From an uncultured Bacilli bacterium (GTDB lineage Bacteria > Bacillota_I > Bacilli_A > RF39 > UBA660), in contig CAKOXO010000002.1 of the NCBI GenBank assembly GCA_934130165.1, forward strand, positions 192,412 to 256,411: DNA of 64,000 nucleotides, given 5' to 3'. How positions within the stretch are numbered: position 1 is the first letter of the stretch; each line of letters starts with the position of its first letter. This document shows, in pieces, positions 7,301 through 8,347 of the stretch. Both the position numbers and the translations under genes were made by a program. A model generated the notes under the pieces. It saw only the letters and a list, made by a program, of their open reading frames with translations. It searched no databases and had not been told where the DNA came from.

Positions 7301-7611
7301 ATATCATACCAATCAGTATCATCAGCATCAGCCAATTTATAATAAATATCCCATTGACCTTCTCCAGCATTTATAGTTAACGTATAGGTGGTACCGTTGT
7401 TATCTTTTTTAACATTTAACAGTTTATTAGTTCTTAATGTATTTGCACAAGCTTTGTCAGCCTTAGATCCGCCACTACTTGCTGATGTTGAAGAATTACT
7501 ATCATTAGTATTTTTCCCAAAAGCATTGAATGGAACAATAAAAATTCCAACAAATATAATCAATATCAACCCTATTTTATTTTTTATACTATGCATCTTC
7601 ATCAGCTCCAT
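4324..7611 (-). CDS. Large secreted Cys-rich, Lys-rich protein (putative adhesin/pilus-associated protein)
   Basis: 1095 aa. N-terminal signal peptide (LILIIFVGIFIVPFNAFG). About 40 cysteines spread along the chain in CxxC-like and CxnC patterns. Many KK/KKK runs. No LPXTG signal and no C-terminal TM. Overlaps the sortase gene by 23 nt. Confidence 0.55.
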   Translation of the reverse strand: MELMKMHSIKNKIGLILIIFVGIFIVPFNAFGKNTNDSNSSTSASSGGSKADKACANTLRTNKLLNVKKDNNGTTYTLTINAGEGQWDIYYKLADADDTDWYDIVTEKGTIKNNTNHYEYKGGSPSSIPISRGKDTQMLYVIALAKGNKDNHVLSKDGNELYVTYDQTKKTTCKSGGFSITEDNKISFKGTGAALNRTIVSLASSHQPKELSEKAKRECEAMRGSKLKTDSQNNYFSYKGLDDNMSNEMHEAYQKEMQKSFSFCYPGNTYDADYTIKASDIKEIRKKSLEAFYYYYQTQKKSQNNEEYKNLPKEGYAEITNLDDNKFNCKATDFQSELIKKYYYEKTEVDNNACKVTCRENYEITYSPPQVVKAGLCFNYTVTIKSKVACKTEMKGDISFPTLILPTQKQCVLSPVCENDSNETQAGPNEKFDSCISSCDGGKYTQKCINSCYNKIYTKKSKVTKTTSKTTKQKPTMLNNTDNNKNNVIKLANKAEKTASDPYKNVNGCTSVGEIQKNWDDCGAKFSKLKKEYPMGYYFEEGENDKWPSWVDLKWKPCFNTKLAKCEYENDKGEKIKYSIEEYNAENYFVRTVEENGEKKEFGTMDIDNLINNIKRSSPYYFATATRATKTLKSFYGEGTGRNGKNGKRFYVIDNRGIKRQHSHTYHCSEKCGFILDEEGIKETDCKQSKSGKKVDKYIKELEGIIDDFKACIASDKCADNEAEFEIKVDTKKGKDEKECTNASPDETKDEGKNWKNKKNQCPTDETKYEENIKERPNLIFMPIDKNDVCYGINGKCYGNEISGNPYHYKTTITTPGSWINLKTGEVKYKKPTEENIYRAKDTYYCTPYNACDVNADWAKQVIENTTIDENGTSTIDGSKISKPEEIDYNIIANMLKFGKYDASFELSCFYGSYSKAVGSQETCYKNNNGKKTECIDDTGKPLSEQKSTKLQNNYDIRISDNASIFPQKNGKDRIRGYNWGSDAKLNSSDQMIKKALDDTGYGVDPVKYSQEVIAKKDSIYNGEADMIIEITKNGMADLKKSDNNITLNGEYKKVAGIPGLYYYQITDGKITKLITSRKWNPGANSQTAKEAMKK

Positions 7612-8347
7612 TCATTATTTTTTTTATTTTTTTGTATTTTTTATTTTCTACAACTTTATAATTTCTAACCACTTCATGTTTTCTAACCAATCTTGCATCT
7701 ACAACAAATGAATAATCAATTCGTTCTCCATAAAATCTAGTACATGTAACTAAAGTAAGTAATTTATCTTTATCATCAACATCAACTTTAAAATCAAAAA
7801 AGCTTTTATTTTTAGTATCTTTTATATATTTGTTTTTTTCTTTTTTACCTAGCTTGTTTTTTTTATATATCAAATCATCAGATTTTTGAAATGAAATACC
7901 ATATATCTTATATAAGTAATTTTCACCATTTATTGTATATTGAATATATTTATTTTCTTTAACAAAATCTATATAAATATAAGAAAGTAATTGTTCAAAT
8001 CTTTTATGATTTTTATTTGCAATCTGTGGTTTTCTTGAAACATTTAAAATATTATGTGAAAATATTGTTGTTTTATCAGCAATATTTTTATCATTTACAA
8101 AAGACCATGCAATATCATATGTAGCATCAGATACGTCCGAATCATAATAATATACCACAGGTAAATCAATATTAGTTCCTTGAACTCTTATCCAGCTTAT
8201 TGCATTTTCCTTTGAAGCCCCTTTAAACTCCTTTACGTCTTTTGTTCTATCTTTTATTTTATAGTAAGGTATTTTACTAATAACTACCGTTAAAACTATA
8301 GCTACTAGTAAAATTATAATTGCATTTCTTTTTTTCTTATTTTTCAT
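7589..8347 (-). CDS. Sortase-family transpeptidase (class B-like)
   Basis: N-terminal TM anchor. The WIRVQGTNIDLPVV motif resembles the sortase YPVVQG region. His in TIFSHNIL. Catalytic Cys in LLTLVTCT (the TLxTC motif). Downstream Arg in VDARLV. Confidence 0.6.
   Translation of the reverse strand: MKNKKKRNAIIILLVAIVLTVVISKIPYYKIKDRTKDVKEFKGASKENAISWIRVQGTNIDLPVVYYYDSDVSDATYDIAWSFVNDKNIADKTTIFSHNILNVSRKPQIANKNHKRFEQLLSYIYIDFVKENKYIQYTINGENYLYKIYGISFQKSDDLIYKKNKLGKKEKNKYIKDTKNKSFFDFKVDVDDKDKLLTLVTCTRFYGERIDYSFVVDARLVRKHEVVRNYKVVENKKYKKIKKIMNGADEDA

Follow-up and report, generated by a model that had tools for sequence, protein, structure and literature searches.

The window analysed here is a stretch of 64,000 nucleotides (positions 192,412 to 256,411 of contig CAKOXO010000002.1, assembly GCA_934130165.1) from an uncultured Bacilli bacterium. 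Its GC content is about 26%, and the genes in its first 50 kb lie nearly all on the minus strand. Among them is the gene of a sortase whose subfamily was found only within one cassette, consisting of a surface protein of 602 amino acids (aa) (S602), the sortase itself, a secreted protein of 1095 aa (C1095), and a DUF5411 protein. The cassette belongs to a cluster in which the genes of a Tad-like type IV filament (CpaB-like protein, TadA/VirB11-like ATPase, two candidate platform proteins, one with a predicted GspF fold, and pilin-like proteins) are combined with those of a Gram-positive type IV secretion system (T4SS) (VirB6, VirB4, a hydrolase, VirD4, and VirB2-like pilins). We suggest, as a tentative reading that falls a little short of an even chance, that the sortase is dedicated to this apparatus and acts on its neighbours, most likely on C1095, via a non-canonical signal. 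The sortase and its active-site features are as follows.

7589..8347, minus strand: sortase, 252 aa, with an N-terminal transmembrane (TM) anchor (residues ~8-25) and a class-B-type catalytic domain
8054-8056, minus strand: codon of His98, the catalytic His (position checked on the DNA)
8012-8050, minus strand: family-specific insertion after the catalytic His (residues ~100-112, from the alignment)
7742-7744, minus strand: codon of Cys202, the catalytic Cys (position checked on the DNA)
7736-7738, minus strand: codon of Arg204, a family-specific extra Arg at Cys+2 (position checked on the DNA)
7691-7693, minus strand: codon of Arg219, the canonical catalytic Arg (position checked on the DNA)

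The sortase passes the gathering cut-off of the Pfam Sortase family (PF04203; 30.2 bits, E = 4e-7, cut-off 26.6). The class B model TIGR03064 is the sole sortase-class NCBIfam model that matches it at E <= 0.1, with E = 7e-15 and 55 bits, which does not reach the equivalog cut-off of 153.75. By sequence, the closest solved structures are Clostridium perfringens SrtB (PDB code: 5b23; E = 2e-11, profile E = 1e-19) and Clostridioides difficile SrtB. An AlphaFold2 model built with 23 homologues has a predicted local distance difference test score (pLDDT) of 89, and when it was compared with the PDB by Foldseek, the best 19 matches were all class B sortases, with E values from 2e-13 to 2e-7. In this model, a helix at residues 168-181, between strands 142-155 and 196-203, is the beta6-beta7 helix of class B. 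The class B-like assignment of the original prediction, which was made from the sequence alone, is thus borne out by the family, class, and structure matches. A protein search with the sortase returned 504 relatives, nearly all from gut metagenomes; two of them carry a name from their source, ‘class B sortase [Bacilli bacterium]’ and ‘SrtB family sortase’. Judging from the matches and the predicted structure, its product is a true cysteine transpeptidase of class B fold, anchored in the membrane and presumably active. It is a divergent, well-delimited new subfamily, or variant, of class B, and the feature is real and well above chance level.

Conservation of residues was examined in the window sortase and 79 orthologues (80 sequences). 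When the sortase is aligned to the C. difficile and C. perfringens enzymes, S-H98-N corresponds to their GHN, TLVT-C202 provides the catalytic Cys, and DA-R219 aligns with ‘DDAR217’ of C. difficile. His98 and Cys202 are each present in 80/80 sequences. Position 219 is occupied by Arg in 72/80 and by Lys in 8/80, while position 204, in the motif ‘TCTRF’, is Arg in 79/80. All eight sortases with Lys219 retain Arg204, and the sole sortase with Lys204 retains Arg219; it appears from this pattern that the two Arg residues may be in part redundant. The three residues pointed out originally, a TLxTC Cys, an upstream His, and a downstream Arg, are Cys202, His98, and Arg219, and with two of them invariant and the third either Arg or Lys, the sortase assignment is not refuted. 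The family differs from clostridial SrtB by a stretch of 11 inserted residues directly behind the catalytic His, with N102, S104, and P107 invariant in it, and by a longer beta7-beta8 loop, which carries the near-invariant Arg204. The most conserved stretches of this fast-evolving protein are the motifs around the active site. As far as the alignment can tell, the sortase looks catalytically intact, with remodelled surroundings of the active site.

These data bear on the idea that the protein is a catalytically dead, sortase-fold structural subunit of the apparatus. The replacement of Arg219 by Lys in a tenth of the sequences and the failure to find a substrate motif would suit such a role, but the invariance of His98 and Cys202, the presence of at least one of Arg204 and Arg219 in every sequence, and the concentration of conservation in the active-site motifs all speak against it. 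We regard a purely structural role as very improbable.

The neighbours of the sortase gene in the conserved block are the following.

10165..11724, minus strand: M519, a polytopic membrane protein of 519 aa, much of it extracellular, which matches DUF4352 weakly; the conserved block starts with this gene
8349..10157, minus strand: S602, a surface protein of 602 aa with an N-terminal TM segment and a small Cys-containing N-domain with L58-P-T-G61
4324..7611, minus strand: C1095, a secreted protein of 1095 aa with a signal peptide and 33 Cys
3881..4324, minus strand: DUF5411 protein, 147 aa, N-terminally TM-anchored (Pfam E = 2e-46)

The stop codon of S602 is separated from the ATG of the sortase by a gap of 1 nucleotide, and the 3' end of the sortase gene overlaps the start of C1095 by 8-23 nucleotides. 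The sortase lies, as originally described, between two large secreted proteins, one with an N-terminal TM segment (S602) and one with a signal peptide (C1095). S602 further contains a Bact_surface_Ig-like domain and repeats ending in G-x-G-xxx-P-Y. C1095 has no membrane anchor, and family and profile searches with it gave no match in Pfam or the PDB; at least 16 of its Cys residues are invariant among the orthologues. For a protein that an anaerobe secretes, so many invariant Cys are unusual. The DUF5411 protein has a near-invariant juxtamembrane motif, N-Y-S-[TS]-G-x-E-L-D-Y-Y (residues 22-37), directly after the TM segment, in which Gly30 is found in 76/76 orthologues and is preceded by T or S in 70/76. 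Beyond M519, between its gene and that of a tRNA methyltransferase, there is also a Lys/Glu-rich open reading frame (ORF) of 420 aa (11800-13062, minus strand), which has no family match and is present in 2/79 of the related loci.

These 79 loci were found via the sortase in a scan of one genome per species. They are from metagenome-assembled genomes of uncultured ‘Bacilli’, ‘Tenericutes’, ‘Mycoplasma sp. CAG:877’, ‘Clostridium sp. CAG:417’, and similar organisms, and some related proteins are labelled Candidatus Faecimonas, which belongs to Bacilli incertae sedis in the NCBI taxonomy. Judging by how the genomes are named, we take the host lineage of the cluster to be RF39-type. In all 79 loci the block has the order M519, S602, sortase, C1095, DUF5411, CpaB-like, ATPase, TadB-like, TadC-like; S602 is adjacent to the sortase in 78/79 and C1095 in 77/79, and DUF5411 is present in 75/79. 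A further locus, which was found via DUF5411 rather than via the sortase, has the identical gene order. No member of the sortase family was seen outside the block, either in the 79 sortase-found loci or in the DUF5411-found one.

The cassette has also been duplicated as a unit. In one locus (L041, 1783-14185) the set S602, sortase, C1095, and DUF5411 is present twice; another (L048, 9917-18374) has an extra unit of sortase, C1095, and DUF5411, and a third (L035, 3244-13934) likewise appears to have one. The two sortase copies of L041 are 42% identical to each other and both retain the His and the Cys, while its DUF5411 copies are 99% identical. The element common to all cassette duplications is the C1095 gene. 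Rates of change differ strongly along the block. Between species, the ATPase and platform genes are 70-90% identical, the sortase, M519, and S602 about 40-45%, and C1095 about 30%; C1095 is the fastest-evolving gene of the block and the ATPase (75-90% identity) the most conserved. Mean pairwise divergence is 0.566 for the sortase and 0.561 and 0.563 for surface neighbours, as compared with 0.25-0.29 for the ATPase and platform genes. In a mirror-tree analysis with the core-gene distance removed, the residual correlation of the sortase is positive only with the three surface proteins, and weak (0.20-0.24).

The substrates of sortases are normally recognised by a C-terminal sorting signal, that is, a motif with a hydrophobic segment and then a basic tail behind it. 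No such signal was found in any ORF of the window or in any protein of the extended cluster, also as seen in the related loci, S602 and C1095 included. The absence of a C-terminal LPXTG or NPQTN signal with hydrophobic tail, noted at first for the two flanking proteins, thus extends to the entire cluster. Likewise, no xPxT[GNASD], xPx[TSA]G, or LPxxG pattern is conserved in more than 50% of species in seven operon proteins (~75 species), save FPGTW in C1095 and SPGTQ in the CpaB-like protein, which are conserved and were rejected as they do not stand in a sorting context. Two other conserved elements, ‘PVPT[ND]ES’ in the CpaB-like protein and a G-x-N-N at or near the C-terminus of C1095 (4324-4374), were rejected for having neither an xPxTx pattern nor a tail, and we see no link between the latter and sortase chemistry; G-x-N-N is conserved there in many orthologues, and elsewhere a Cys-containing extension follows. 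Elsewhere in the window, a protein of 178 aa (61546-62082, minus strand) that ends in a hydrophobic segment and KGKKSY was rejected as a substrate for want of a sorting motif; it matches ZapG weakly and probably sits in the membrane by a tail anchor.

The internal LPTG motifs that had been noticed in S602 are real (residues 58-61 and 417-420) and, as stated then, are not in a sorting context; however, L-P-T-G does not have the variable residue of LPXTG, and the second site is not conserved. At the first site, about 25 residues after the TM segment, LP is kept in ~90% of orthologues and TG in ~75%, with alternatives including LPENNE and LPREG, and in the S602 paralogue that closes the cluster, LPTS occupies this position. 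On this alignment, the first LPTG is most likely a structural turn in the small N-terminal domain. A different role for this site would be as a cleavage point, if the sortase were a processing enzyme for N-terminally anchored components. Cutting between Thr and Gly61 of L-P-T-G61 in S602, or between Thr and Gly30 of Y-S-T-G30 in DUF5411, would yield an ectodomain starting with Gly, for incorporation into a filament or as the acceptor nucleophile. Both sites would be near a membrane-proximal active site, and the conservation of the S602 site as well as of Gly30 and the residue before it would be in keeping with processing. Neither site, however, fits xPxTG; TG is missing from S602 in about 25% of species, yet the sortase is kept in all; and the LPTS of the paralogue points to a structural turn. 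To our knowledge, there is no precedent for a sortase reaction of this kind, and we consider this alternative improbable.

The rest of the cluster comprises the following genes, of which the first four lie in the window and the others follow to the left, outside it.

3059..3862, minus strand: CpaB/RcpC-like protein, 267 aa, with an N-terminal TM segment; its matches to SAF, RcpC, and TIGR03177 are all under the cut-offs
1749..3026, minus strand: secretion ATPase, 425 aa, T2SSE superfamily
842..1735, minus strand: TadB-like platform protein, 297 aa, whose predicted fold matches the GspF/PilC cytoplasmic domain
60..842, minus strand: TadC-like second platform protein, 260 aa, assigned from position and topology alone
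Outside the window, first after the TadC-like gene: pilin-like gene of 57 aa, beginning MKAATG/ELNLTVIT
Outside the window: gene of 144 aa, with an N-terminus resembling that of the 57-aa pilin-like protein, then a gene of 327 aa
Outside the window, next after the 327-aa gene: two T4SS_pilin-like genes
Outside the window: TrbL_4/VirB6-like gene (TrbL_4 28 bits, cut-off 27), then a gene of 121 aa
Outside the window: gene with a weak precomputed TraC-like match, which was not recovered by a Pfam scan at E <= 0.1
Outside the window: VirB4-like ATPase (Pfam P-loop_TraG and AAA_10)
Outside the window: wall hydrolase (Pfam SpoIID and Peptidase_C39_2), then a gene of 259 aa
Outside the window: VirD4-type coupling protein (Pfam T4SS-DNA_transf, TrwB_AAD_bind, and TraG-D_C)
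Outside the window, last gene of the cluster: 427-aa paralogue of S602

The whole cluster measures about 30 kb and extends to the left past position 1 of the window, as seen on contigs of the same and related species (L080, 10855-20783; L083, 2656-16305; L084, 2698-16268). The Pfam matches of the VirB4, VirD4, VirB6-like, and hydrolase genes were established in these three loci, and with them the core set of a Gram-positive T4SS is complete. Within the Tad-like module, the ATPase passes Pfam T2SSE (95 bits), while its matches to VirB11 (118 bits) and to the TadA-family model TIGR03819 (104 bits) are both under the cut-off. The CpaB-like protein scores 22.8 bits for RcpC (cut-off 28.8) and 33 for TIGR03177 (cut-off 71), and in the cluster of a distant relative a Pfam RcpC gene occupies the equivalent position. 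No T2SSF match was obtained for either platform protein in Pfam, even when 10 distant homologues were included, or in a sequence-profile search of the PDB; the fold comparison of the TadB-like protein provides the sole GspF/PilC signal, and the TadC-like and TadB-like profiles match each other weakly (E = 0.014). The 30-kb cluster contains no Flp motif G/xxxxEY and no TadV or peptidase A24-like gene. Therefore, the ‘Tad-like operon’ of the original prediction holds in part: a T2SSE ATPase, a weak CpaB/RcpC match, and one GspF/PilC fold support it, whereas the cluster is also a Gram-positive T4SS and lacks the Flp motif and TadV. Similarly, the pilin that had been suggested to lie outside the window has a counterpart in the pilin-like genes just beyond its edge, but these are type-IV-pilin-like, with an N-terminal G/xxN[LI]T motif, and not pilins of the sortase type.

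The downstream flank of the cluster consists of housekeeping genes (rhodanese, DedA, RmuC, and a tRNA synthetase) and is common to two species with hydrolases that have 52% identity to the query. Since the same flank is found in both, the cluster behaves like a part of the chromosome that is inherited vertically. When the wall hydrolase served as query in a metagenome scan, no relatives turned up; the cluster was traced further through homologues of this enzyme. No relaxase or integrase was found among the Pfam-annotated genes of the cluster, several of whose genes are unannotated. A scan for promoters and terminators was uninformative in this AT-rich DNA, with 109 sites against 104 expected. 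Elsewhere in the window, at 50052-56292 on the plus strand, a tRNA-Gly(tcc) is followed by a block of plus-strand genes with reversed GC skew, among whose products are a large serine recombinase (50759-52498) and a relaxase of the Mob_Pre/MOBV type (55057-56292). The block probably represents a mobilisable element that has integrated here, and in principle the relaxase-less T4SS of the chromosome could serve it.

A dedicated role of the sortase can be potentially described as follows. At the outer face of the membrane, the sortase would capture an exposed component of the apparatus, which would then be ligated either to the peptidoglycan of the wall or to a partner anchored in the membrane. 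As substrate, the best candidate would be C1095, which has a signal peptide, is anchorless and Cys-rich, and is encoded by a gene overlapping that of the sortase; the recognition element would be something other than a C-terminal sorting signal of the LPXTG type. In favour of this role are the fold and catalytic residues, the constant gene order, the 1-nucleotide gap to S602 and the overlap with C1095, the co-duplications, the remodelled surroundings of the active site, the lack of canonical signals in the cluster, and, weakly, the rate of divergence shared with the surface proteins; precedents are SrtD of pCW3 and the sortase-anchored adhesins of Gram-positive T4SSs. These features were observed, while the activity of the enzyme, its substrate, the acceptor, and the recognition element are inferred. 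A wall is probably available, since the cluster encodes a wall hydrolase and meso-diaminopimelic acid (m-DAP) peptidoglycan is predicted for RF39 (PMC10868615).

The main competing explanation is that the enzyme is a housekeeping sortase like that of C. difficile, which anchors a few SPxTG-type proteins encoded elsewhere to meso-DAP peptidoglycan and which sits in the operon only for co-expression, for example with the display of an adhesin that aids cell contact. The nearest solved relatives, from C. perfringens and C. difficile, would agree with this, as would the single sortase of C. difficile, which is of class B, with SPxTG/PPxTG as its recognition motifs and a presumed housekeeping role (PMC8225981), and the prediction of srtA/B together with m-DAP peptidoglycan in RF39 genomes (PMC10868615). 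Proteins with sorting signals SPVTG (L038) and IPNTLSR (L079) are encoded within 10 kb of the cluster, in loci where no second sortase was seen, and a rough estimate over about 650 kb of non-cluster flanking DNA gives some 3 signals per Mb. However, strict embedding in the cluster, the gene overlap, and co-duplication with C1095 and DUF5411, with both paralogues kept, are unexpected for a generalist. The score far under the SrtB equivalog cut-off and the remodelled active-site region also argue against it, and in 77/79 loci no protein with a sorting signal, such as NPQTN, NPKTG, or SPxTG, is encoded within 10 kb, L038 and L079 being the only exceptions. Overall, a housekeeping function is possible but rather unlikely as the explanation of this sortase; the two roles are compatible with each other.

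Several observations weigh against a dedicated role and in part favour the housekeeping one. No recognition motif was found, so that the central step of the scheme above is an inference. Canonical substrates do exist in these genomes: the DUF7601 protein of L038 (11-1318, plus strand) has SPVTG followed by a TM segment and RYSKTKKSKS, and the thioester/SpaA adhesin of L079 (576-2486, minus strand) has IPNTLSR followed by a TM segment and RRYHQY. A regular-expression scan of 1.7 Mb of related sequence recovered sortases of this family only, and if this sortase is the sole one in the genome, it must serve substrates of these canonical types. In three loci (L001, L005, and L007) there is a second S602/C1095 pair, upstream of the sortase, without a second sortase. 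A distant relative of the TadB-like protein (29% identity) is encoded in a cluster without any sortase (L087 and L088, 9209-14539), which has the order RcpC, TadB-like, TadC-like, and a gene of 330 aa, with no ATPase in between, and lies beside ribosomal protein genes. Finally, the co-evolution signal is weak, and a shared rate class could explain the correlation between the sortase and the surface proteins.

The L079 adhesin also raises the possibility that the sortase polymerises pilins of the SpaA/thioester type encoded elsewhere, like Spy0129 of Streptococcus pyogenes and the sortase of the pneumococcal type II pilus. That adhesin is a TED+SpaA protein with a sorting signal, and pilus-type class B sortases are among the structural matches of the model (PDB codes: 4y4q, rank 7; 3psq, rank 18). 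These matches are weaker than those to clostridial SrtB, though; no locus has an adjoining cluster of pilin genes, and the adhesin itself is a lone gene among housekeeping genes. A pilin polymerase is, if anything, slightly more improbable than the processing enzyme discussed above.

A more far-reaching form of the dedicated role would make the sortase an integral assembly enzyme of an undescribed hybrid nanomachine, in which a chromosomally fixed Gram-positive T4SS is fused to a Tad-like pilus module across uncultured, genome-reduced gut Bacilli, and in which the signal-less C1095 or S602 is fixed covalently to the wall or filament via a new sorting element. In this extended form the proposal is unlikely, a shade more so than a housekeeping function. 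If true, it would mean a new mode of substrate recognition by sortases, and no monoderm T4SS before it would have had a VirB11/TadA-like ATPase and pilins of its own. The cargo of such a machine (DNA, effectors, or nothing) and the target of the sortase could explain contact with hosts or other bacteria. Since sortases are normally understood via C-terminal sorting signals, a subfamily from about 80 species that looks intact and resides in a signal-less cassette is a tractable case of non-canonical recognition. The context is at least as interesting as the enzyme, being the chromosome of abundant, uncultured, genome-reduced gut bacteria.

The T4SS and Tad-like cluster appears to be undescribed, and no published account of it, or of a sortase inside a Tad or type IV pilus locus, was found in the literature. 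Among known systems, clostridial SrtB (C. difficile CD2718; C. perfringens, PDB codes: 5b23, 5yfk, 5gyj, and 4ux7) gives the best sequence and structure matches and shares with the window sortase the N-terminal anchor, the GHN/SHN His, the TLxTC Cys, the ‘DAR’ Arg, and the beta6-beta7 helix. It differs in that it is only ~25% identical and lacks the 11-residue insertion, the longer beta7-beta8 loop, the near-invariant Arg204, and a C-terminal extension; moreover, the window sortase is embedded in a secretion/pilus cluster that encodes no SPxTG substrate. The pair of SrtB and IsdC from Staphylococcus aureus is similar in its class B fold (PDB codes: 1ng5, 1qwz, and 4lfd are in the top six matches), and S. 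aureus SrtB is dedicated to an operon-encoded partner. However, the substrate of the Isd operon has NPQTN with a TM segment and a charged tail, whereas the window cluster has neither such a signal nor haem-uptake genes.

In a ‘membrane machinery’ operon predicted in Roseburia, Ruminococcus, and Eubacterium (Miller et al. 2022, PMC9523054), DUF5411 stands beside a CpaF-type ATPase and a PilC-like protein, also in gut Firmicutes. The genes listed for that operon include no sortase, VirB4, or VirD4; it has a single PilC-like gene instead of two and comes from other taxa. The cluster resembles Tad/Flp (type IVc) loci in its order: a putative CpaB/RcpC-like gene comes before an ATPase that probably belongs to the TadA/VirB11 branch, two candidate platform genes follow it, and small genes of the pilin-like and TadE-like kinds lie further downstream. 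Unlike them, the cluster has TG/ELNLT instead of the Flp motif, no TadV, and no detectable Pfam T2SSF, and it includes a sortase, which a literature search found in no known Tad locus.

Systems of Gram-positive conjugation (pCW3 with SrtD, pCF10 with the LPXTG adhesin PrgB, and Clostridium sordellii pCS1 with srtB) also link a sortase to genes of the VirB4, VirD4, VirB6, and hydrolase types, with surface proteins presumed to serve contact (PMC8225981, PMC12857230, PMC5770547). SrtD of pCW3 is needed for efficient conjugative transfer (PMC8225981), while srtB of pCS1 is dispensable and has little effect on transfer (PMC5770547). For RF39 genomes, srtA/B were predicted without separate counts of srtA and srtB in the supplement (PMC10868615). 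According to a review, Gram-positive T4SSs have no VirB11 homologues or pili and rely on sortase-anchored LPXTG adhesins (PMC12857230); contrary to this picture, the present cluster pairs VirB4, VirD4, and VirB6 with a TadA/VirB11-like ATPase, candidate platform proteins, one of them with a predicted GspF fold, and two kinds of pilin-like genes. The adhesins of the conjugation systems carry canonical signals and the systems reside on plasmids or integrative and conjugative elements, whereas the window cluster is chromosomal, flanked by housekeeping genes, conserved across many species, and equipped with a Tad-like ATPase and platform module.

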